Positions 3,615 through 63,714 of a stretch of 64,000 nt of DNA are shown piece by piece. Within the stretch, counting starts at the first letter, position 1. Every line of letters starts with the position of its first letter. The notes under the pieces were generated by a model, which had not been told where the DNA came from, made no database searches, and saw only the letters and a list, made by a program, of their open reading frames with translations. Position numbers and translations under genes: made by a program. Location: NCBI GenBank assembly GCA_027487075.1, contig JAIYEG010000006.1, forward strand, positions 4,468 to 68,467, written 5' to 3'. This stretch comes from a bacterium (GTDB lineage Bacteria; Patescibacteriota; Minisyncoccia; Phycocordibacterales; CALRBL01).

Positions 3615-3729
3615 GCTTCTCTGAGATGTTCTTCCGTAAGGAGACTTGCGAGGCTCGACGGAGTGAGCACGAGGAATTTTCTAGTAAGAAAATATCCGTG
3701 CTCCTGGAGGAAGAATATATCAGAGAAGC
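3615..3729. repeat. structured intergenic repeat element, copy A (conserved core inside a locus-specific inverted repeat)
   Basis: Arms GCTTCTCTGAGATGTTCTTCC / GGAAGAATATATCAGAGAAGC flank the core CGACGGAGTGAGCACGAGGAATTTTCTAGTAAGAAAATATCCGTGCTCCTGG. Core is near-identical to the copy at 37468-37535 (opposite strand) and homologous to copies at 11266, 29229, 31342 and 45130. Confidence 0.8.
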
Positions 3730-3775
3730 TGGTTAATACTTTGCATTCTTATGCTTTATGTGGTAATTTCTCCCT

Positions 3776-4113: not shown

Positions 4114-4719
4114 TTACTTCTTGGTGAAGATTGCCTGAGGAGCAGCTTTTTTAGTATTTGGCTGGAGTTTGTCCCACATCACAGTGACGTGTTTATCGTC
4201 GGTTCGAGTGAGAGTAAAAAGAGTATCTCCTTTGGTAAATTTTTTAGTGGTATTCGATCCAAGTACTGAGTTGTCGTAGGTATCGAAGGTCACTTTATAT
4301 GTTCCATCGTCTTGTGTTTCAAGAATAGTGGTGAAGCGGAGTTGGGTCTGGAAGCCGTCGACTTTCATGTAGCCTCGGACAGGGTCGGTGTCGGCGGTAA
4401 TGTCATAAGAGTATTGCCATCGCTGAGTAGGGCTCGCTGATTCATCAAAGTAGTAGGTACCAAATTGTGTTGCTTCAGAGTCGGCGGGAAGTTTTGATTG
4501 GGGGTGAGTCATAGGCACCTGCACCATTGAAGTTTCTTCGATATAGTAGGTCGACATTGCACGGACTTGCTCATACTGTACGCCGATACAGAAACAGAGA
4601 GTGGGGATGACACCGAGAGCAAAAATAATCCACATCAGTTTTGAATACCAGGTAACTTCGTTGAGTTTGATCATGTTTGTAATATAACATGATTTTATGT
4701 GCGGTGCTCTACGAGGCAT
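4114..4719 (-). CDS. hypothetical membrane-anchored secreted protein
   Basis: N-terminal TM helix then soluble domain; start may be the internal Met (MIKLNEV). Confidence 0.5.
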   Translation of the reverse strand: MPRRAPHIKSCYITNMIKLNEVTWYSKLMWIIFALGVIPTLCFCIGVQYEQVRAMSTYYIEETSMVQVPMTHPQSKLPADSEATQFGTYYFDESASPTQRWQYSYDITADTDPVRGYMKVDGFQTQLRFTTILETQDDGTYKVTFDTYDNSVLGSNTTKKFTKGDTLFTLTRTDDKHVTVMWDKLQPNTKKAAPQAIFTKK

Positions 4720-4809
4720 CCATCGCTCCTTACAGGAGCAGTACCCCGATTGGATACTCTGCTTCGGCTCGAATACTCGCCTCGCATAGTATGCTCAATT
4801 TATTCGCTG

Positions 4810-4881
4810 TGCTCTCGGCAGGAATCGAACCTGCATTACAACTTCCGCAAAGTTGCGTCCTATCCATTGAACGACGAAAGC
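4810..4881 (-). tRNA. tRNA-Arg (anticodon GCG)
   Basis: GCTTTCGTCGTTCAATGGATAGGACGCAACTTTGCGGAAGTTGTAATGCAGGTTCGATTCCTGCCGAGAGCA; perfect 5-bp anticodon stem, loop TTGCGGA, no encoded CCA. Confidence 0.75.
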
Positions 4882-7815: not shown

Positions 7816-8211
7816 ATGAAATATCTCGGTATTGATTTTGGTGACAAACACGTAGGAGTTGCTGTCTCAAACGATGGTGGCACAATGGCGTTCCCGCTCA
7901 CGACGCTTGATGGTGGGACAGGGCTTATAGATGAGGTCTCAAAGCTCATCGAAGAAAAGGGGGTTCAAGCGGTGGTCATCGGGGAATCAAAAGATTTTCA
8001 GGGACAGGACAATAAAATTATGAAGAAAGCTCGCGTATTTGCGGAGGAGCTAGCTCAGAAAACTTCAAAAAAGGTGCCTGTCCCCATTTACTTTGAACCC
8101 GAGTTTATGACTTCAGTAGAGGCGCGACTCATTCAGGGAGGGGGAGAAAAGACGCATGCCTCGGCAGCGGCACTCATCCTCAAGAGTTATCTCGACAGAA
8201 AAAACAATTAA
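7816..8211 (+). CDS. ruvX: Holliday junction resolvase-like protein RuvX/YqgF
   Basis: MKYLGIDFGDKHVGVAVSN... diagnostic YqgF N-terminus. Confidence 0.85.
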   Translation: MKYLGIDFGDKHVGVAVSNDGGTMAFPLTTLDGGTGLIDEVSKLIEEKGVQAVVIGESKDFQGQDNKIMKKARVFAEELAQKTSKKVPVPIYFEPEFMTSVEARLIQGGGEKTHASAAALILKSYLDRKNN

Positions 8212-11149: not shown

Positions 11150-11221
11150 GCCCCTGTAGTTCAATGGATAGAACTGCGGACTTCTAAGCCGTCAATCTAG
11201 GTTCGATTCCTAGCGGGGGCA
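11150..11221 (+). tRNA. tRNA-Arg (anticodon TCT)
   Basis: GCCCCTGTAGTTCAATGGATAGAACTGCGGACTTCTAAGCCGTCAATCTAGGTTCGATTCCTAGCGGGGGCA; loop CTTCTAA. Confidence 0.8.
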
Positions 11222-11373
11222 CAAGCCAAGAAATCCAAACCGCTTTGGATTTCGCTGGACTTGTGCCGGCCGGAGCGCGACGGCGCGAGGTGGGGTCGCG
11301 GACATTTTTAGTAAAAAATGATCCGTGACCACAAGTTAAATCTTCAAACAGGGTACTGATCCTGTAAGGATCG
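11222..11373. repeat. composite structured repeat, copy F: tRNA-3' hairpin, GCGCGACGGCGCGAG core, A/T hairpin and UGUAA-loop hairpin
   Basis: GGCACAAGCC...GGACTTGTGCC hairpin; GGAGCGCGACGGCGCGAGG; ACATTTTTAGTAAAAAATGA; CAAACAGGGTACTGATCCTGTAAGGATCG. Confidence 0.75.
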
Positions 11374-11426
11374 ATATATTGATAAAAAACATCTTTTACG
11401 CTACAGTGAGTCGGTCAGTCTAAGAA

Positions 11427-11499
11427 GGGCGATTAGCTCAGTTGGTAGAGCAACCCGTTTACACCGGGAAGGTCATAGGTTCGAGTCCTGTATCGCCCA
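11427..11499 (+). tRNA. tRNA-Val (anticodon TAC)
   Basis: GGGCGATTAGCTCAGTTGGTAGAGCAACCCGTTTACACCGGGAAGGTCATAGGTTCGAGTCCTGTATCGCCCA. Confidence 0.85.
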
Positions 11500-11605
11500 C
11501 AAATGAACAGCGAGAGCGTGGAATTTTTTTTCAAACGAAGAAGAGAATTTTTATGAAATTCAAGAAGAATGTCGCAGATTTTATACCGAGCTGACAGAAT
11601 CGTTT

Positions 11606-14587: not shown

Positions 14588-14671
14588 GCGCAGGTGTTGA
14601 AACTGGTAGACAAGCACCCTTGAGGTGGGTGTGCCTTAACCGGCGTGGAGGTTCAAGTCCTCTCCTGCGCA
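14588..14671 (+). tRNA. tRNA-Leu (anticodon GAG)
   Basis: GCGCAGGTGTTGAAACTGGTAGACAAGCACCCTTGAGGTGGGTGTGCCTTAACCGGCGTGGAGGTTCAAGTCCTCTCCTGCGCA; long variable arm. Confidence 0.85.
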
Positions 14672-14715
14672 CAAACAAAAGAAATCCCGCAAGGGATTTT
14701 TTTGTTTGTGCGCAG
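14665..14715 (+). terminator. nested terminator: ~17-bp outer stem reusing the tRNA-Leu 3' acceptor strand, with inner AAATCCC-GCAA-GGGATTT hairpin and U-tract
   Basis: CTGCGCACAAACAAAAG ... TTTTGTTTGTGCGCAG are exact reverse complements. Confidence 0.7.
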
Positions 14716-14793
14716 AGCAAGCACCAAGGTGCTTGCGTGAGAGGACTTGAAGCCTGTTTGAGCATGTTGTACGAGCGAAGCGAAGTAGAACAT

Positions 14794-14822
14794 CCAAACA
14801 GGGTACAGGTCCTGTAAGGACC
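14794..14822 (+). repeat. tRNA-downstream UGUAA-loop hairpin motif
   Basis: CCAAACAGGGTACAGGTCCTGTAAGGACC; same motif at 11346-11373 and 4725-4753 (minus strand). Confidence 0.7.
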
Positions 14823-14929
14823 AAGTCCTTTACATTGACTTATTAATTCAAGTATTGTATTTTCCCTTAAAAGTTCCTTGACTTTAGATTGTTGAGTTTG
14901 GAAGAAAGACCGTAATTGACCTGCAGACA

Positions 14930-15271
14930 TTGTGTCTAGCGGATTATGTGCTTTCACCCCAAACTCAACACATCATGCTAAGTATTGATTCAACCTCAGT
15001 TGCACCCTTTCGGGTCGGCGACCAAGTGGTCTGGAATGAACGATGGAACCCAGTATACATATCGAAATATAAAGCGATGTGGGGAGAGGGTCCCTTCGTC
15101 ATCGTTTCGGTTGTGCTCAAGAAGAACTCTTGCTCCTATGCGGTGAAGGTCAAAATGGGTCGATGGTATCTCTACGCACAAATGCCTAGGGATTGTCGTC
15201 CAGATATCCCTGTTGATCATTTGCGTGAGTGGCAACCAATCTATTTCGTCAAACATCAAGCGGACGAATGA
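14930..15271 (+). CDS. hypothetical protein
   Basis: 113 aa ORF; start may be the internal Met. Confidence 0.45.
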   Translation: MCLADYVLSPQTQHIMLSIDSTSVAPFRVGDQVVWNERWNPVYISKYKAMWGEGPFVIVSVVLKKNSCSYAVKVKMGRWYLYAQMPRDCRPDIPVDHLREWQPIYFVKHQADE

Positions 15272-15324
15272 TCACGCCTGTTCATGCTGCAAAGAGCGCT
15301 TCACCTTCGGGTGTTGCGCTTTTT

Positions 15325-15834
15325 TTATTTATTCACCATCACAAACCGAAACTCCTTCTCGCTCCACTTCGCACCCGCATATTCCACACCAATTCGTTTC
15401 GACGCACGTATCTTCGGTTTCACTCCCTTGTCCCTCGGCTCAAACCACAACCCCGTTTCAACTCCTGCTTTCTTCCCATTAAATTTCATATCAATCTCAA
15501 GCGCTCGCCCTACACGCCCCGGACCCTTCACTCCCTCAACTCCACGAATCAACACCGCAGCAGGGTACTCGGCTTTTTCAGTCACCACGTTCAACAAATA
15601 GTACATCCCATAAATCAAATACACATACAGTGTCCCAGGCTCTGCAAACATTACTTCAGTCCGCTTTGTTTGTCCTTTCGACGCATGCGACGCTAAGTCG
15701 TGCGGACCGATATATGCTTCGGTTTCGGTGATCAGGTAGCGTTTGGTGGTGCGTCCTATGTTTCTGACGATATAACAACCTATAAGTTCCTCAGCAACGC
15801 GCAATGTTTTCTTCGAAAAGTCAGGAGATTTCAT
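15325..15834 (-). CDS. DNA-3-methyladenine glycosylase (Mpg/AAG family)
   Basis: RYLITETEAYIGPHDLASHASKGQTKRTEVMF matches the Mpg family core. Confidence 0.8.
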   Translation of the reverse strand: MKSPDFSKKTLRVAEELIGCYIVRNIGRTTKRYLITETEAYIGPHDLASHASKGQTKRTEVMFAEPGTLYVYLIYGMYYLLNVVTEKAEYPAAVLIRGVEGVKGPGRVGRALEIDMKFNGKKAGVETGLWFEPRDKGVKPKIRASKRIGVEYAGAKWSEKEFRFVMVNK

Positions 15835-29188: not shown

Positions 29189-29202
29189 ATAGAGGAATAA
29201 AA

Positions 29203-29307
29203 CTTACAAAACCTTTTCGGAAGGAGGCTCGCAGAGCGCGACGGCGCGAGCGTGAAAAATTTTCTAGCAAGAAAATATCTGTACTCCTGAAGAAAAGGTT
29301 TTGTGAA
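29203..29307. repeat. structured intergenic repeat element, copy B
   Basis: Arms CTTACAAAACCTTTTCGGAAGG / CCTGAAGAAAAGGTTTTGTGAA; core GCAGAGCGCGACGGCGCGAGCGTGAAAAATTTTCTAGCAAGAAAATATCTGTACTCC. Confidence 0.8.
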
Positions 29308-29521
29308 TTTTATTTGCTATACTCATTTCATGAACACCGAAGAACGCCTTCTCGCGCTGGAACAAAAGATTGATGCAATGTCAGTAGTGGTAAAAAAGCT
29401 GTACCGTGTTTTTTTGATTACCGTGATTATAAGCGTAGTTGCGTTTGTGCTTCCTTTGATCGGGCTCCTGTTTGCGATTCCATCATTTTTATCTACCTAT
29501 GCAAGTATTTTGGGACAGTAG
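29303..29521 (+). CDS. small hypothetical membrane protein
   Basis: 72 aa with one TM helix; its 5' end lies in repeat copy B, so likely starts at the internal Met (MNTEERL). Confidence 0.4.
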   Translation: MNFICYTHFMNTEERLLALEQKIDAMSVVVKKLYRVFLITVIISVVAFVLPLIGLLFAIPSFLSTYASILGQ

Positions 29522-31310: not shown

Positions 31311-31423
31311 CTAGCACAGAATTCTTACTCGGAGAAAACATTGCGCAAGCGCGACGGCGCGAGCATAAGAATTTTCTACCAAGAAAATATCTGTGTTTTC
31401 GAAGAGTAGAGATTTTGTGCTAG
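31311..31423. repeat. structured intergenic repeat element, copy C (exemplar), filling the whole argS-ileS gap
   Basis: Arms CTAGCACAGAATTCTTACTCGGAGAAAACAT / CTGTGTTTTCGAAGAGTAGAGATTTTGTGCTAG; core TTGCGCAAGCGCGACGGCGCGAGCATAAGAATTTTCTACCAAGAAAATATC. Confidence 0.85.
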
Positions 31424-31432
31424 GATAACCCC

Positions 31433-35475: not shown

Positions 35476-37422
35476 ATGAATGATCTTGAGCGACAACGTG
35501 AAGAAGAGGAGGAGCGAAAAAGTCGTATCGACTCTGCGCGCGACAATTTGTATCGCCCAGGAGGTCCAAGTGTGATTCATCGTGAATCAGATCCGCGATT
35601 GCCGCAGGAAGAAGAGGCGCTCCCATCTCAAACATTCGCTCCACGTGTACCGCGCACCTTCGATGAACAAAAGTTTGCCTCAAAAGCAACTACGATCTTC
35701 CGTCGCATGTTCTTGGGAGCTCTGGTGTTTTTCGTAATTGCAATTGGCGTAGCAGGGTACATGTATTACTACGGCAACACCACTATCTCCGCAAAAAATA
35801 TTGAAGTCGATATTGTTGCACCACCGTCTGTGCCTTCAAGTGACACCTTTTCGTATGATGTGAGTATTCAAAATGGCAACAATGGTGATCTTCTTAACAC
35901 CGCACTCGTCATTGATTACCCAGAGGGCACGCGTAGCGTCGAAGATAATACGAAGCCGTTGGTGAGTGAGCGTATTGAGCTCGGTACCTTGTCGAAGGGG
36001 GCAGTAGTACGCCGCACATTGTCTGCGCGATTCTTTGGAGAAGAGAATGCGCAAAAAGATGTGCAGGTCCGAATCGAATATCAGGTGCCTGGATCTAATG
36101 GGCAGTTTAGTAAAGATGCCGGATTTAGTGTGTTCTTGAGACTCGCCCCTGTCGTGCTCACCATCGATGCGCTCAAAGAAATCAATAACAACCAAGAGGT
36201 GACATTGGTTGCTAAAGTGGTGTCAAACTCAAACAATACCTTAAGCAATCTCGCTCTCAATGTGACATATCCCTTCGGTTTTACGTACAAGAGCTCGAAT
36301 CTCGAAGTTGATGGACGAAAAGGAGAATTTCCACTCGGTGAACTCAAGCCAAATGAGACAAAGACGGTTGAGATTGTGGGAGATATCAGTGGGCAAAGCA
36401 ATGAAGATAAAGTATTTAAATTTAACGTAGGTACGGCAAGTAATGCAGATTCAACACGCGTGAGCACCTCACTTGCAATGCATGTGCATGACATGGTGAT
36501 TCGTGGAGATTTCTTGGCAACGTCGATCACCTTCGCAGATCGTAAGGATTATGTGATTGTTGGTGATAAGCTTCGAGGGACTATACAATGGCAGAATACG
36601 CTCAATGTGCCAGTCAACGATGCTAAGTTCACGCTTAAGATTGACGGGGACTTGATTGATAAAGATAATATCCGCGCAACTCAGGGATATTACGACTCAA
36701 ATCGCTCACTTATTGAATGGAATAAGAATATTGATCCTCGACTTGAAGAAATAAAGCCTGGTGAAAAGGGAGAATTCGCATTCGCTGTTGATCTTAAAGG
36801 TTTCGACGAAGCTCTTGCGGAACGGATTAGTAATCCAAAAATTAATTTGAAGTTCGATGTGCATGCGCGACGTATCAATGAGAATGATGTGACAGAAGAC
36901 ATTGAATCATCATTTGAGAGATCAGTGCCCATGGTGTCAGATGTGGTACTTACAGGCAAGACACTTTATAGCAGTGGTCCCTTGAAAAACAGTGGCCCTA
37001 TACCTCCAAAGGTTGAAACCAAGACCACGTATACCGTAGCACTCACCCTTACCAACACGGTTAATGAAGTATCAAATGGAGAGCTCACCCTTACGCTTCC
37101 CAACTATGTAACCTATGAAGGCGAGGTGACGCCCTCAAGTGAACGTATTTTATGGAATAGTAGCACCAAACAGCTTCGTTGGAGTGTGGGGTCATTGCCC
37201 GTGCGCACAGGATTTGGCACCGCGCCACGCACACTCAACTTTAAAGTGAGTGTATTGCCAAGTCGAAGTCAAATTGGAAAGACGTTGAATCTGGTGAATA
37301 ATGTTAGCTTTGTAGGACGTGATAATTTCGCAAATGCAGAGGTGAAGGCATCAGGAAATATTGTGACAACTTCGGTGCAAGATCCCGGAGCTGGATTTGG
37401 CACAGGGCAAGTGGTACAGTAA
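35476..37422 (+). CDS. large membrane-anchored surface protein with repeated beta-rich (Ig/CARDB-like) domains
   Basis: Charged N-terminus, one TM helix, then ~540 aa of Thr/Ser/Asn/Val-rich repeats. Confidence 0.55.
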   Translation: MNDLERQREEEEERKSRIDSARDNLYRPGGPSVIHRESDPRLPQEEEALPSQTFAPRVPRTFDEQKFASKATTIFRRMFLGALVFFVIAIGVAGYMYYYGNTTISAKNIEVDIVAPPSVPSSDTFSYDVSIQNGNNGDLLNTALVIDYPEGTRSVEDNTKPLVSERIELGTLSKGAVVRRTLSARFFGEENAQKDVQVRIEYQVPGSNGQFSKDAGFSVFLRLAPVVLTIDALKEINNNQEVTLVAKVVSNSNNTLSNLALNVTYPFGFTYKSSNLEVDGRKGEFPLGELKPNETKTVEIVGDISGQSNEDKVFKFNVGTASNADSTRVSTSLAMHVHDMVIRGDFLATSITFADRKDYVIVGDKLRGTIQWQNTLNVPVNDAKFTLKIDGDLIDKDNIRATQGYYDSNRSLIEWNKNIDPRLEEIKPGEKGEFAFAVDLKGFDEALAERISNPKINLKFDVHARRINENDVTEDIESSFERSVPMVSDVVLTGKTLYSSGPLKNSGPIPPKVETKTTYTVALTLTNTVNEVSNGELTLTLPNYVTYEGEVTPSSERILWNSSTKQLRWSVGSLPVRTGFGTAPRTLNFKVSVLPSRSQIGKTLNLVNNVSFVGRDNFANAEVKASGNIVTTSVQDPGAGFGTGQVVQ

Positions 37423-37608
37423 AGGGGACAGGCACCTTTTTTCGTGAAGCAGAGCACCACATAATCGTCAGTGTCCTTACAGGAGCACGGATATTTTCTT
37501 ACTAGAAAATTCCTCGTGCTCGCTCCGTCGAAGCCCCACAAGGCTCCTTTCAGGACACCGCCGATTATGCGTTTCTCTGTCTTTAAAAAGGTGCCTGCCC
37601 CCTTAATT
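37422..37608. repeat. structured intergenic repeat element, copy E (core on minus strand)
   Basis: Arms AAGGGGACAGGCACCTTTTTT / AAAAAGGTGCCTGCCCCCTT; reverse-complement core CGACGGAGCGAGCACGAGGAATTTTCTAGTAAGAAAATATCCGTGCTCCTGTAAGGAC is near-identical to copy A. Confidence 0.85.
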
Positions 37609-37612
37609 TTAT

Positions 37613-44905: not shown

Positions 44906-45106
44906 ATGAAAAAATGCTACTTCTCACAGAATAATATCAAGCATGTAGATTACAAGGATACGGACTTGCTCAAAAAGTTCCTTAATCCTCATGCTCGTCT
45001 TCTTTCAAGCAAGAAGACTGGTGTGAATGCTAAGCACCAGCGCAAGCTTGCTAACGCTGTAAAGCGCGCTCGCTTCATGGCTCTCATTCCGTATATTAGT
45101 CGATAA
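44906..45106 (+). CDS. rpsR: 30S ribosomal protein S18
   Basis: VDYKDTDLLKKFLNPHARLLSSKKTGVNAKHQRKLANAVKRARFMALIPY. Confidence 0.9.
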   Translation: MKKCYFSQNNIKHVDYKDTDLLKKFLNPHARLLSSKKTGVNAKHQRKLANAVKRARFMALIPYISR

Positions 45107-45220
45107 ACTAAACAAAATACCCCGAAAGAAACATTGCGCAGCCTTGCGGCGAGCATAGGAATTTTTCAGAAGAAAAATATCCGTGTTTCTGAAGGGGTAT
45201 TTTGTTTATTTATCGCTGAC
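45099..45220. repeat. structured intergenic repeat element, copy D, spanning the convergent rpsR-efp gap
   Basis: Arms GTCGATAAACTAAACAAAATACCCC / GGGGTATTTTGTTTATTTATCG; core CATTGCGCAGCCTTGCGGCGAGCATAGGAATTTTTCAGAAGAAAAATATCCGTGTTTC; left arm overlaps the rpsR stop. Confidence 0.8.
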
Positions 45221-59514: not shown

Positions 59515-60377
59515 CACTTCTACATCGCAAATATGTCACTCACCTCAAAACCCAAGCGCCTCGAATAACGCCCCATTGTTGAGTGTTATTCAAGACCGCT
59601 CGGAAGAGCGGTTTTTCTTTAAAACGATAGTTTTAAAGAAGATATAATCGCAAGCGAGGGGTCATGTTACGATGTCGATTTTTGACAAATCCATCCCGCC
59701 CCGACACTTTTGTTCAGAAGCCGCAAGGCCTATGAACAACTGGAGGTCTTTTCAGTTGGAGGCGGAAAGGTAATAGAAAGTAAATGTAAGTAATTGTGGT
59801 CTTTAAATTTCCTAATAGGAAATTAAGAGCATATGGTGGATGCCTTGACTTAAAGTGACGATGAAGGACGCTGCGTAGCTGCGATATGCTTCGGGGAGGT
59901 GCCAAGCAACCTTTGATCCGGAGATCTCCGAATGGGGAAACCCTACCGCTTCGGCGGTAATCCACGCGCTAGACGTGTGGAGGTGTTACCTGGGGAAGTA
60001 AAACATTTCAGTACCCAGAGGAATAGAAAAGAATGTCACATTGTGACGATATTTCGTTAGTAGCGGCGAGCGAAAACGAAAGAGCCCAAACCGAACTCCT
60101 CTATTGAAGGCGCTTCGTAGACTCAGCGCGCAAGTGCTGTGTCCGCGAGTTCCTTCGATAGGGTAGTTCGGGGTTGTAAGGTAGTGATCGTAATTTATTA
60201 CAGAGAGTTACAAATTATATTGTTAGCAGAATGAGCTGGAAAGCTCGGCCCAAGCAGGTGATAGCCCTTTACGCGAAAACAATATAACTCTCATCGCTAT
60301 TCTTGAGTACCTCGAGACACGAATGGCTCGGGGGAATCCAGCGGAACTAACCGCTAAGGCTAAATACACTTTAAGAT

Positions 60378-60420
<43 letters not shown>

Positions 60421-61835
60421 GGAGAGGGGAGTGAAATAGAACTGAAACCATATGTTTACAAGGAGTCGAAGAGGGTATTTATATCCTCGACGGCGTGCCT
60501 ATTGAAGAATGAGCCAACGAGTTGTTGCATGCGGCCCGGCTAAGTCCTAAGGGACGAAGTCATAGGGAAACCGAGTATTAATAGTGCGTTAGTCGTATGC
60601 ATCAGACCCGAAGCCAAGTGAGCTTGCCTTGCGCAGGGTGAAGTTCGCCGAAAGGCGGATGGAGGCCCGAACCGTTTTGCCGTTCAACACATTCGGATGA
60701 CGTGAGGTAAGAAGTGAAAAGCTAATCGAACTTGGTAATAGCTGGTTCTCTCCGAAATAGCTTTTGGGCTAGCGTCGGATGTTCCTTTTGGGGGTAGAGC
60801 ACTGGAAGGTCTCGACAGGGAGAAATCTCGCGAGACCTATCAAACTCCGAATACCAAAAGTTAATAGTCCGGCAGTTAGACCGTGGGGGCTAAGCTCCAC
60901 TGGTCAAAAGGGAAACAGCCCTTGATCTCAAGTTAAGGTCCCAAAATCTACGTTAAGTACACTTAAGGTGGTAGAATTTCTCTGACAATGAGGAGGTTGG
61001 CTTAGAAGCAGCCATCCTTTAAAGATAGCGTAACAGCTCACTCATCCAGAGATTCCGCGCCGCAAATGATCGGGGTTAAACGTAGTACCGAAGCTGAGGG
61101 CTTTCCGTGTGTTCGCACATGGGGAGCGGTAGGAGAGTGTTCCATTCGCGATGAAGGCAAAGGGGTGACCCATGCTGGAGCGCTTGGAAGTAAGAATGTT
61201 GGCACAAGTAACCACAATGCGGGTGAAATCCCCGCACGTCGAAAGATCCAGGTTTCCTTCGCTACGACAATCGGCGAAGGGTTAGTCGGCCCTAAGGGGA
61301 TGGCGAAAGCCGCACCCGATGGACACATGGTTAATATTCCATGACCGTTATATATTGCGATGGGAGGACGGAGAGTAGTATGTGTTGCGTATTATTGGAT
61401 TTACGTTCGTGTTGTAAGGATGAGTTCTAGGCAAATCCGGAACTCGCTAATCCAAGCAAAGCGAAAATGTCCGCCGAAAGACGGATAAATTATGCAAAGC
61501 ACTCTTCCAAGAAAAATCTCTAAGCTTCAAATATATAATGACCGTACCGCAAACCGACACAGGTGATCAGGGCGAGTAGCCCAAGACGAACGAGTGAGAA
61601 GTCCCCAAGGAACTCGGCAAAAAAGCAGCCGTAACTTCGGAATAAGGCTTGCCCCATTTCAGCAATGAAAGGGGGCCGCAGCTAAAGTATCTCTGGCAAC
61701 TGTTTACCAAAAACACAGCTCCCTGCGAACTCGTAAGAGGATGTATAGGGGGTGACACCTGACCAATGCCCGAAGGTCAAACGATGGCGGTGCGACACTA
61801 TTTATTTAGTGGCAAGCTGACCGTTGTAAGCCCGG

Positions 61836-61886
<51 letters not shown>

Positions 61887-62440
61887 TGGTAAGTTCAGAC
61901 GCGCACGAATGGTGTAATGACTGGAGAACTGTCTCGGGGACCTGCTCGGTGAAAATACAGTAGCGGTGAAGATGCCGCTTACCTGCAGTTAGACGAAAAG
62001 ACCCCAGAAGCTTTACTGCAACTTGGTATTGAATATACATTTCTGCTGCGTAGCATAGTGGTGAGACTTTGAAGTATCGATTTCGGTTGGTATGGAGTCG
62101 TCAGTGAAATAGCCATCTGTATTTGTGTATATTCTAACCTCAACGGCAAAAACGATGAGAGACAGTATCTGGCGGGCAGTTTTAGTGGGGCGCTATCCTC
62201 CCAAAAAGTAACGGAGGAGTTTATTAAGGTCAGCTAGGCGCGAATGGAAACCGTGCCGATAGTGTAATGGCACAAGCTGGCTTGACTGTGAGACGTATTT
62301 GTCAAACAGGCGCGAAAGCGGAACATAGTGAACCGACCATAGGCATTAGACGCCGTGGAAGATTATCAGACAAAAGCTACTCTGGGGATAACAGGCTGGT
62401 TGTATCTAAGAGTCCAAATCGACGATACAGTTCGGCACCT

Positions 62441-63243
62441 TAACACATCGGGGTGCCTAGGAAAGTAATTTCCTACAAAAAATCTTGGCTTATAACGGTG
62501 GACTCCATGTATAATTAATACATGGACAATACCGTGGGAAGTTTAACCAAATTGCAAAGATCAGTGATCATCGGAACCCTTTTAGGTGATGGATATGTGA
62601 GAATTGTTCCAAGAAGAGTACATGCTTTTCTTGAAATAAATCATTCAATCACTCAAAAGGAATACGTTGACTGGAAATATGAAATGTTAAAATCGGTATG
62701 CAAGTCTGGACCAATCCAAAGAAAAGGGAATGGAACAAGAATTGCATATAGATTTACGACAAGACAAAGCAAAGAATTAACTTCGCTTTATCAAGCTTTT
62801 TATCAAAATGGTAAAAAGATTATTCCGGAAATATTGGAAATTGATCCAATTTCACTCGCAGTGTGGTTCATGGATGATGGAAGTAGATGCAGAGAAAGAG
62901 ATGTCTATCTGAATACTCAACAATTTGATGTTGAAGATCAGAAAAAACTCATCTCTTTTCTGCAAAAATGGGGAATCGAGAGTACATTGAATAAAGATAA
63001 AATCTATTGGAGAATTCGAATCAAGAAATCTTCAATACATACCTTTTTCAAAATAATTTCTCCCCATGTTATTCCATCTATGAATTACAAAATTGGTTAT
63101 AACCCTGTAGAGACTTGTATTGAAGAGCAATTTCTTCATACAGAGCTGCTTCCAAGGGAAGCGGTTAACACGCCAACTCCTTTCTGATCAGAAAGGATGA
63201 AGATATAGTCCGATCCTTCTAGTAATAGAAGCAAAATACGACA
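62441..63243 (+). mobile_element. group I-like intron in 23S rRNA (site homologous to E. coli ~2449) carrying a homing-endonuclease ORF
   Basis: Exon junction ...TTCGGCACCT | intron | CGATGTCGGCTC...; intron ends in G. Confidence 0.75.
62522..63187 (+). CDS. double-motif LAGLIDADG homing endonuclease (intron-encoded)
   Basis: GTLLGDGYV and [19 protein letters not shown] motifs; 221 aa ORF wholly within the rRNA intron. Confidence 0.8.
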
Positions 63244-63337
63244 GCGATGTCGGCTCAACTTATCCTGGGGCTGGAGAAGGTCCCAAGGGTTTGGCTGTTC
63301 GCCAATTAAAAAGTTACGCGAGCTGGGTTCAGACCGT

Positions 63338-63714
63338 TTTGAATCGCAAGATTCAAAACAGATATATAGCGTGTTTTTGCGCAAGGTATTTGTTTTGACT
63401 TTAGGTTTAAAACACTCTGAATCCTTAGAGGAAAAATGAGAAATTTAATGTTATGTCTTTTCGACAAAAATGATAGAGATATCATGTTAGGAAACAACCA
63501 AAACGGCGGTCGTACATAGAGATGTGTATGAAAGCAGTTGACTTATATCGGTAGAAGCCCAATTTGAAAAAATGGCCAATACCGAGGGAAGAGGGTCCGT
63601 CCTTACCCGTAGAGACTGAACGTCAACCATCACGAATTTATTCGAGATGATATTACAGTCCGAACCTCACAGTAATGTGAGTTGCTAAGCAACAAAATTG
63701 TTTAGGTACACAAG
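63338..63714 (+). mobile_element. second, ORF-less group I-like intron in 23S rRNA (site homologous to the I-CreI / E. coli ~2593 site)
   Basis: Exon junction ...GAGCTGGGTTCAGACCGT | intron | CGTGAGACAGGTTGGTCTCCTATC...; ~377 nt, ends in G. Confidence 0.65.

Follow-up and report, generated by a model that had tools for sequence, protein, structure and literature searches.

Structured modules built around copies of the host tRNA 3' end in Patescibacteria as candidate non-autonomous insertion cassettes

Integration of islands and prophages at the T-loop of tRNA and tmRNA genes is well established, and is said to have been described for genomic islands and prophages by Williams in 2002. Here we compare this and other known systems with a module found in Patescibacteria, in which a structured core lies between an antisense and a sense copy of the 3' end of the host tRNA itself, an arrangement that we did not find in any described system. 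Like the tRNA-integrating islands, the modules show direct repeats that start in the T-loop, leave the gene intact, accrete in tandem and bring accessory cargo. A sense copy of the tRNA end lies within 600 nt downstream at 61 of the 198 tRNAs of the fetched loci, and 0.9 to 3.8 kb downstream in six loci, with none upstream in either case. Unlike the islands, module units can be as small as ~150 nt and contain an inverted copy of the target together with a structured core, and the cargo open reading frames (ORFs) of five loci include no integrase.

The attC sites of integrons resemble the modules in being imperfect palindromes whose structure is kept above the sequence of the arms and whose fold is selected on one strand, in their branched center and extrahelical elements (the hairpin P0 in the modules), and in forming arrays that sometimes enclose promoterless genes. 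We also count as a likeness that integron cassettes and CALIN arrays use a recombinase in trans and have the newest unit beside the entry site. By our reading the R'' and R' boxes of attC (RYYYAAC and GTTRRRY) are absent from the module arms, which are tRNA-specific 3'-end copies; the module core keeps its sequence; entry is at a tRNA or tmRNA end in place of attI; and most module units have no gene. No integrase domain such as that of IntI was present among the cargo and window ORFs scanned, which represent part of each genome.

REP/BIME, REPIN, ERIC, Correia and MITE-like repeats are also small, non-coding, hairpin forming, multicopy, non-autonomous and located in compact intergenic space, but the module arms are target specific, the conserved part is the hairpin apex and the association with stable-RNA ends is tight. 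The common terminal inverted repeats and fixed short duplication of MITEs are lacking, the module duplication ranging from ~7 nt (third unit of locus L220) to more than 21 nt. The CTX-type attP (XerCD), the omega RNA of IS200/IS605 and the bridge RNA of IS110 likewise mimic or read a target through paired arms beside a scaffold; however, no phage, XerCD site, TnpB, IscB or IS110 recombinase was seen linked to the modules in the loci and ORFs scanned, and their arm geometry differs from all of these. tRNA mimics (T-box, the tRNA-like domain of tmRNA, RNase P external guides and mascRNA-type RNAs) are comparable in that a module with both arms intact forms an acceptor/T minihelix carrying the sequence of the neighboring tRNA, whereas the 5' strand of the module is a perfect complement reaching the discriminator and trailer, a three-way junction replaces the T-loop, and there is no anticodon or specifier and no Rfam match. 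T-box leaders differ further in that the module arms pair with tRNA nt 54-76, including non-CCA trailer bases, and the window has no RF00230 match at E<=5. The P3-P9 core of group I introns is absent as well, the module core being 75-90 nt with three helices and no RF00028 match; group I introns in Patescibacteria tRNAs have been described (PMC13011429) and are a different feature. Rfam 15 returned only tRNA, 23S and weak group I hits for the window, at gathering thresholds and at E<=5, only tRNA and tmRNA for 15 loci with canonical modules, and nothing for the module in eight further loci. A literature search found nothing describing the module.

The original prediction placed a hairpin motif 3' of three tRNAs in the 64-kb stretch of DNA analyzed here (the window), and pattern search, shuffling and tRNA annotation all agree with it. 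The 22-nt pattern GGGTACNGNTCCTGTAAGGANC matches at 11351-11372 and 14801-14822 on the plus strand and at 4725-4746 on the minus strand, with no match in 100 shuffles of the window (0 expected against 3 observed). ARAGORN and Rfam locate six complete tRNAs in the window, and from the ARAGORN placements all three copies lie 62-128 nt 3' of a same-strand tRNA (Arg-TCT, Leu-GAG and Arg-GCG), as would ~0.6% of window positions by our own arithmetic. A covariance model built from relatives (R1) recovers exactly three window copies, at 93.6, 38.4 and 29.0 bits, all remaining matches having E>0.1; the tRNA-Val, tRNA-His and tRNA-Ser genes of the window have no module. The predicted hairpin is only the last quarter of the element, and the CAAACAGGGTAC noted with it is the 3' strand of helix P1 plus the start of the junction. 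The three copies represent one complete unit, at tRNA-Leu, and two relics. The Leu unit is complete from the hairpin Pal-1 to the core (14665-14824), with its sense copy decayed, and is composed as follows:

14588-14672, plus strand: tRNA-Leu(GAG) (ARAGORN, Rfam), its last ~21 nt copied in both module arms
14665-14716, plus strand: Pal-1, a near-perfect hairpin (predicted fold with 22 Watson-Crick pairs and one G.U, -35.9 kcal/mol) that takes in the tRNA 3' end, an A-run, a terminator-like stem-loop (14681-14699), a T-run and S'acc
14707-14715, plus strand: S'acc, antisense of the acceptor 3' strand (TGTGCGCAG), within Pal-1
14717-14739, plus strand: hairpin P0 (GCAAGCACC AAGG TGCTTGC) and GTG linker, from the sequence
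14740-14751, plus strand: S'T, antisense of the T-loop and T-stem 3' strand of tRNA-Leu (AGAGGACTTGAA), 12/12 matches
14752-14824, plus strand: complete type-1 core (R1 match 14740-14831, 93.6 bits, E 4.6e-25)
14753-14760 with 14795-14802, plus strand: core helix P1 (structure model)
14762-14794, plus strand: core helix P2 (structure model)
14803-14808, plus strand: core junction GTACAG (structure model)
14809-14821, plus strand: core helix P3, GTCC-TGTAA-GGAC (structure model)
14825-14834, plus strand: decayed sense copy of the tRNA-Leu 3' end, GTCCTTTACA where GTCCTCTCCT is expected

P0 splits the antisense arm of this unit exactly at the acceptor/T-stem boundary, and in relatives it stands at the same place with the form GNAAG...CTTNC-GTG.

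A composite between two tRNA genes had been predicted at 11222-11373, and tRNA-Arg and tRNA-Val do flank it. It is a unit with a Y-shaped (type-3) core in the slot at the tRNA end (11260-11337), and behind it stands what is left of an older type-1 core, its 3' half; the third copy, at tRNA-Arg(GCG), has lost its 5' parts. The features of the two Arg loci are:

11150-11222, plus strand: tRNA-Arg(TCT) (ARAGORN)
11230-11253, plus strand: hairpin GAAATCCAAA CCGC TTTGGATTTC past the tRNA (sequence, fold)
11260-11267, plus strand: antisense copy CTTGTGCC of the tRNA-Arg(TCT) end and trailer (GGCACAAG), from the sequence
11268-11330, plus strand: type-3 (Y-shaped) core (alignment A4)
11331-11337, plus strand: short sense copy ACAAGTT of the tRNA-Arg(TCT) end/trailer (ACAAGCC), from the sequence
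11338-11374, plus strand: relic with only the 3' half of a type-1 core (R1 match 11329-11381, 29 bits, 44 model positions missing), holding a P2 3' strand remnant, the P1 3' strand (11345-11352), GTACTG, P3 GATCC-TGTAA-GGATC (11358-11372) and GA
11427-11500: tRNA-Val (ARAGORN)
4809-4881, minus strand: tRNA-Arg(GCG) (ARAGORN)
4723-4800, minus strand: type-1 core without antisense arm, P0 or P1 5' strand (R1 match 4716-4814, 38.4 bits)
4738-4726, minus strand: P3 CTCC-TGTAA-GGAG, from the sequence
4698-4722, minus strand: decayed sense copy of the tRNA-Arg(GCG) 3' end, TGGATGCCTCGTAGAGCACCGCACA against TTCCTGCCGAGAGCACA

The type-3 core at 11268-11330 groups in one family with window repeats A, B, C, E and F and with tRNA-linked cores in L027, L043, L056 and L079. 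The repeat copies, all placed in alignment A4, are:

3615-3730, plus strand: copy A, fold z -8.1, with long arms that are not tRNA derived
29195-29315, plus strand: copy B, fold z -6.6
31311-31424, plus strand: copy C, fold z -6.9
37415-37612, minus strand: copy E, with nested long arms
45101-45215, plus strand: copy F, fold z -10.8

A link between the tRNA-associated hairpin and this larger repeat family had been proposed, and part of it stands: the type-3 family uses the same post-tRNA slot elsewhere and forms 11268-11330. The other part, that the tail of copy E is the same hairpin, does not. The sequence CCTGTAAGG also occurs inside copy E, at 37475-37483 on the minus strand, but the CTCC-TGTAA-GGAC there is predicted to be a strand of an internal loop and copy E scores 12 bits against R1; the resemblance to P3 is superficial. 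For repeats A, B, C and F, a search of the window for a third occurrence of the arms gave only chance-level matches.

Rather than standing free, the UGUAA hairpin forms helix P3 in a conserved core of ~75-90 nt with a three-way junction. The type-1 core runs TCGAAG, P1 (8 bp), a bulged A, P2 (a long variable hairpin opening with an invariant G-C pair), GUACUG, P3 (4-5 bp, loop UGUAA) and (A/C)GA, and P3 is always embedded in this larger core. Across an alignment of 63 cores with 7-nt flanks (A1), 90.7% of pairs in the structure are standard, versus 74.2% in column shuffles and 36-53% with slid partners; changes on both sides are seen at 21 of the 28 pairs, and RNAalifold independently predicts the same helices. 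The pair at the T-loop center covaries (CG 46, UA 8, UG 6), and the fourth pair of P3 is GC in 22 cores, CG in 20, AU in 18, UA in 2 and unpaired in 1. G.U pairs outnumber A.C combinations in the core helices by 46 to 7; selection therefore acts on the fold of the tRNA-sense strand, whether as RNA or single-stranded DNA. Stem covariation around a constant UGUAA loop, suspected from the window, is thus confirmed in relatives, both in the aligned cores and in R1 matches without the exact pattern. Retrieval of the loci by exact pattern is the only reason why the GGGTAC and TCCTGTAAGGA columns of A1 do not vary; the 33 R1 matches without that pattern have free P3 stems (GAAAC/GTTTC, GGTCG/CGACC, GACCC/GGGTC), keep the UGUAA loop and mostly keep GUAC. 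Read by eye, a tandem G.A motif (UGAG...CGAA) of the kink-turn kind in P2 is plausible.

Type 1 is one of several cores found in this position. In other genomes the same slot holds a type-2 core (AGGCTTTTCG...ACCCGCGACGGTAGTCGAGA), the Y-shaped type-3 core reads GRCGGA, hairpin, GAG, GGGGTCGCGG...AGTA...CCGTGACCGA, and several more unrelated cores occupy the post-tRNA slot. In L110 and L030 a related type 1b core with P0 lies upstream of an intron-bearing tRNA-Asn, embedded in a partial direct repeat of the 5' exon of that gene and not within the intron.

An exact-pattern scan of one genome per species gave at least 118 loci. The taxa among the matches listed are almost all Patescibacteria, including Paceibacterota, Parcubacteria and the Kaiser-, Taylor-, Zambryski-, Lloyd- and Nomurabacteria groups, although some taxon labels may be wrong because many loci come from metagenome bins. 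Four matches in Bacteroidales, Bacteroidetes, Chitinophagaceae and Ignavibacteriaceae contigs have no surrounding module and look like chance. A phage origin was rejected, with 0 matches in 2.9 million viral contigs. An intact same-strand tRNA lies within 160 nt upstream in 76 exact-motif matches, representing at least 15 isotypes among the matches listed. From 5' to 3', a unit follows the order tRNA 3' end; a terminator-like hairpin (usual) or sometimes cargo genes; an antisense copy of nt 76-54; the core; and a sense copy of nt 56-76. The stretch from tRNA to module consists of an A-rich trailer, a terminator-like stem-loop and a T-run, followed by S'acc; the antisense arm is often split by P0 into S'acc, P0 with GTG, and S'T; and the sense copy (S2) extends from ~nt 56 to the tRNA end plus a few trailer bases.

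Both arms match their own tRNA closely. S'T agrees with the expected antisense at 10 or more of 12 positions in 64 of the 76 units, and S2 agrees with the tRNA at 12 or more of 13 positions in 29 of 76, shuffled controls being much lower in each case. That S'T follows unusual T-loops (ACTTGAA for TTCAAGT, AATCGGA for TCCGATT) indicates that it is truly antisense. Where a G.U or mismatch in the acceptor makes the comparison informative, S'acc is the exact complement of the tRNA 3' strand and not a copy of the 5' strand in 10/10 cases, so the module is not a tRNA paralogue; a paralogue with a 5' acceptor strand is rejected 10 to 0. An antisense T-arm copy was present within 600 nt downstream at 97 of the 198 tRNAs of the fetched loci and upstream at 2. 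Perfect 9-nt antisense copies of the tRNA end without a module are essentially absent, and seven apparent exceptions precede P0-like hairpins by our own reading. Pal-1-type hairpins of 20-31 pairs, made of the last 9 nt of the tRNA, the trailer, the terminator stem and S'acc, occur at 44 tRNAs, and their arms comprise 894 Watson-Crick pairs versus 24 G.U. All modules are co-oriented with their tRNA. The antisense T arm matches the tRNA at 90.5% of positions, and the sense copy has decayed to 71%.

Enrichment near tRNAs had been set as a test of the original prediction, and a survey with R1 (135 matches in 98 loci) bears it out: 73 matches begin no more than 100 nt past a same-strand tRNA, where 1.3% would be expected. 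A further 18 lie 100-400 nt past a tRNA, in arrays, 21 are at a contig edge and 23 have no tRNA within 400 nt. Among these 23 is a module after tmRNA in L055, confirmed by Rfam, and by our own reading tmRNA-like 3' sequences end three further loci. The module is also present at orthologous tRNAs of relatives, a further test set for the original prediction, with Arg-TCT followed by Val-TAC in L088 and Arg-TCT modules in L003, L054 and L100. Roughly a third to half of the tRNA genes in the sampled Patescibacteria genomes have at least one module.

Units are gained or lost between close relatives. A metagenome scan that was blind to the module, using the 22-nt 3' end of the window tRNA-Leu, yielded 102 distinct loci. 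Sixty-seven were empty, with an ordinary trailer only, and 35 were filled by an antisense T-arm copy and then a type 1, type 3 or other core, with a sense copy after the core in 24. Loci L220 and L159 share 95.8% identity across 2 kb downstream. In L159 the tRNA is followed by a 50-nt trailer/terminator and the downstream sequence; in L220 the tRNA and 50 nt are followed by 409 nt with three modules, the identical 50 nt again and then the downstream sequence. The most distal unit of L220 is in a second slot, comprising the tRNA end and trailer (arms CGCTTTTGTG and AAAAGCG), a design common to the window Arg-TCT unit (arms CTTGTGCC and ACAAGTT) and also seen in L135. Tandem identical units are found in L088, L092, L094, L082 and L224, a second trailer/terminator copy in L042 and L220, and relics and nested units are common, the window included. 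Units stack next to the tRNA, different core families share the slot, and the tRNA gene is left intact. Core identity is 0.71 within a genome and, between genomes, 0.68 for the same anticodon and 0.65 otherwise; recent intragenomic spread was rejected, as within-genome identity is barely raised. Orthologous modules show compensating P1 changes, for example at tRNA-Leu(TAG) (CCTGTTTG/CAAACA versus CCCGATTG/CAATTG), which suggests long residence under constraint. A search for near-identical strains through the L19 protein gave only a 1.3-kb contig.

Some units enclose genes. In five of the five loci inspected, a module or remnant stands just before the distal sense copy, and the cargo between tRNA and distal copy includes XRE-type HTH (HTH_3), KilA-N, DUF6671, zinc ribbon and HIT domains, with other ORFs lacking a recognizable domain (ORFs of L017, L029, L032, L043 and L058). 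NCBIfam assigned no function to the cargo ORFs. The units, their immediate surroundings and the window ORFs scanned yielded no recombinase, transposase or reverse transcriptase, and neither TnpA/TnpB nor a DEDD recombinase was seen in the ORFs scanned of 8-kb loci.

The best explanation we can offer, and one to which we give about half of our belief, is that the modules of Patescibacteria are insertion cassettes, small and non-autonomous, whose targets are the 3' ends of genes for stable RNAs (tRNA, tmRNA). Most orthologous tRNAs are without a module, the same slot takes unrelated cores, arrays and relics are common, the target is duplicated and cargo is occasionally enclosed, all of which argues for cassettes and against a required role in tRNA maturation. 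The antisense and sense arms would fold around the core into a hairpin imitating the double-stranded end of the target gene, recalling integron attC sites and the CTX attP, which are read as structures by enzymes encoded elsewhere. Such an enzyme, also encoded elsewhere, would use the arm hairpin as single-stranded DNA or read-through RNA and insert the unit at the T-loop or 3' end of the target, and the target end would be duplicated on insertion, leaving the tRNA undamaged. The hairpin that the enzyme would most plausibly recognize is P3, which borders on the sense copy; recognition of the hairpin by a protein or nuclease, one of the roles first proposed for it, is possible and fits this model. 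Closed into a circle together with Pal-1, a minimal unit would form a rod. Counting against cassettes are that no enzyme was found, that there is no sign of recent bursts, and that the difference between L220 and L159 may just as well have arisen by deletion between the paired 50-nt repeats. Moreover, we know of no integration mechanism that makes an inverted target copy beside the insert. A bolder version, which we regard as improbable but worth stating, is that Patescibacteria run integron-like, base-pair-programmed cassettes, in which enzyme-free units encode the target in arms around a structured handle (UGUAA or a sister core) and an enzyme in trans reads the arms. The stable-RNA gene chosen as target would receive the unit, with or without cargo, at its end, and this end would be duplicated over a length that depends on the length of the arms; new arms would retarget the unit.

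Other explanations account for part of this evidence. The modules could instead be a cis-acting RNA domain of tRNA read-through transcripts, in which the antisense arm pairs with the tRNA 3' half or the sense copy as an acceptor/T-arm minihelix mimic, P0 replaces the tRNA body, and RNase P, RNase Z, RNase III or another factor uses the mimic in 3'-end processing, quality control or insulation of tRNA units. Strict co-orientation with the tRNA and the G.U excess fit an RNA role equally well, and the greater fidelity of the antisense T arm than of the sense copy, the position of P0 exactly at the acceptor/T boundary, the inclusion of the last 9 nt of the tRNA in Pal-1 hairpins and the better conservation of the module than of the terminator between L016 and L027 all speak for it. 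We nevertheless think it unlikely: the module is missing from two thirds of orthologous tRNA-Leu loci and the filled ones have unrelated cores, which also makes the general tRNA 3'-processing signal of the original prediction unlikely; arrays, relics and copies kilobases away cannot act on the tRNA transcript; a terminator-like hairpin and T-run precede the antisense arm; and type-3 copies with non-tRNA arms lie between protein genes. The cassette and RNA views can be combined if the read-through RNA of a unit serves its own propagation. Somewhat further from our expectation, and doubtful, is a programmable guide device, a transcript from the strong tRNA promoter whose antisense and sense arms guide a trans-encoded nuclease or recombinase to matching DNA, comparable to omega RNA with its guide taken from the flank or to the target loops of bridge RNA. 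A conserved scaffold does adjoin variable target-matched segments of 7 to 23 nt, the length of duplicated target equals arm length in both slots (T-loop; tRNA end and trailer), and a remote site within ruvX agrees at 33/37 nt with an arm of window copy E. However, no effector gene was found, both arms span the same target positions, unlike the adjacent halves in bridge RNA, third matches in the window to the remaining four type-3 copies do not exceed chance, and the device is without a clear route for rewriting its arms to a new target.

The sense-antisense-sense order also recalls replication template switching at the terminator and T-arm hairpins (tandem inversion duplication), by which the arrangement would be functionless and the cores unrelated structured repeats that settled later in the new loops. 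The succession of sense copy, terminator loop, antisense copy, T-loop center and sense copy, the further trailer/terminator copy in L042 and L220, and the almost exclusively Watson-Crick arms of Pal-1 are as this would have it; yet no core-free antisense copy was seen, the arrangement is at a third to half of tRNAs over the whole class, and P0 and the cores are conserved with covariation, making template switching very unlikely. Least probable of all, to the point of being barely conceivable, is an intrinsic terminator or the protein operator of a following promoter. Promoter-like hexamers do follow two window copies (11379-11407 and 14835-14863), but a promoter scan found 23 against a shuffled expectation of 19.6, which is not above chance, and a freely varying stem is unlike a sequence-specific DNA operator. 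An intrinsic terminator calls for a G+C hairpin with a T-run; P3 is followed by GATATATTG, AAGTCCTTT and GATGGATGC, has no T-run and no scanned terminator, and is always part of a larger core, and the terminator-like hairpin that the scan lists, at 14682-14699, sits upstream, between the tRNA and the module. The terminator reading, including the termination-signal role first suggested, is contradicted by the sequence and is excluded.

Several other candidates were rejected. A split tRNA, suggested by the likeness of CU-GUA-AG to the anticodon loop of tRNA-Tyr, has no matching halves, and the register in relatives is that of a 5-nt loop. An intron in the T-loop of a real tRNA does not suit an upstream flank that is antisense (AATCGAA for TTCGATT, ACTTGAA for TTCAAGT, AATCGGA for TCCGATT) and an intact tRNA that is always upstream. 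Read against consensus, the junction strands misfit hammerhead, twister, pistol, hatchet and HDV ribozymes, for which Rfam also gave nothing.

The modules are abundant in some of the smallest and most gene-dense bacterial genomes, yet no Rfam family or paper was found for them. They are of consequence for annotation as well: tRNA finders, assemblers and island predictors can be misled by the long palindromes and by the repeated tRNA ends. The covarying structure, clear boundaries and filled and empty alleles make the question of what they do directly testable. If the modules act as RNA, they would add a lineage-specific layer to tRNA biology. If they are cassettes, they would add a new case to the mobile elements that use base pairing to mimic or read a target, systems from which genome-editing tools have repeatedly come, and they would show how genes can be gained at tRNA ends without an integrase in cis.

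Modules, putative insertion elements in which an antisense arm, a core and a sense copy of a tRNA 3' end follow a stable-RNA gene, also occur in other settings in loci from other genomes and metagenomes. At two of these loci, L110 and L030, a group I intron splits the anticodon loop of the tRNA-Asn gene:

L110 760-1290, tRNA-Asn locus
L030 2740-2090, minus strand, tRNA-Asn locus

Upstream of each, the 5' exon and the beginning of the intron are partly repeated in direct orientation, and this repeat contains the arm hairpin P0 and a type-1b core, CGCAAGACC...GGTGTACAG...UGUAA. In L033, L073 and L077, modules with matching antisense arms sit 3' of an apparently structured RNA ending in ...GGGTACTTAACCC...GAGTA. 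Rfam gives no match to this RNA at E<=0.01; it may represent a diverged form of RNase P RNA or some other stable RNA.

Several units (L040, L087, L031, L055, L080, L102, L020 and L137) carry a small extra motif, (T/A)AAGYGTACTCRCGGT, between core and sense copy, and it accompanies type-1 (three-way-junction) as well as type-3 (Y-shaped) cores. At L032 4340-4443, two oppositely oriented cores are fused head to head on a single common P2 hairpin, which suggests recombination between palindromic P2 arms.

Within the window, the gap 3' of the complete type-1 unit at tRNA-Leu(GAG) is occupied by a small ORF of ~100 amino acids with no assigned family:

14835-15330, gap holding the ORF
14835-14863, promoter-like site
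near 15290-15330, terminator-like hairpin

Intron-bearing rRNA genes are common in the Patescibacteria phylum, and the features that follow the 23S rRNA gene suggest one at 59813-63682:

59813-62497, 23S rRNA gene
62522-63187, LAGLIDADG_2 endonuclease ORF
63178-63230 and 63435-63682, two group I intron-like Rfam matches, each under the cut-off

Five type-3 copies in the window (A, B, C, E and F) have arms that are not tRNA-derived, and aminoacyl-tRNA synthetase genes adjoin three of them, an arrangement with a chance probability roughly estimated at ~0.005:

29195-29315, copy B, which with copy C brackets argS
31311-31424, copy C, with argS on one side and a class I synthetase gene beginning 8 nt past its end
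37415-37612, copy E, adjoining a class II synthetase gene

Copy A adjoins ruvA, and copy F is placed between ssb and efp. The outer arm of copy E is identical at 33 of 37 nt to the interior of a ruvX-like ORF 29 kb away, and its second arm is an inverted copy of the first:

8062-8098, matching segment of the ruvX-like ORF
37409-37445 and 37585-37611, arms of copy E

In this one non-tRNA copy, the arms therefore stem from, or correspond to, part of a gene located far away.
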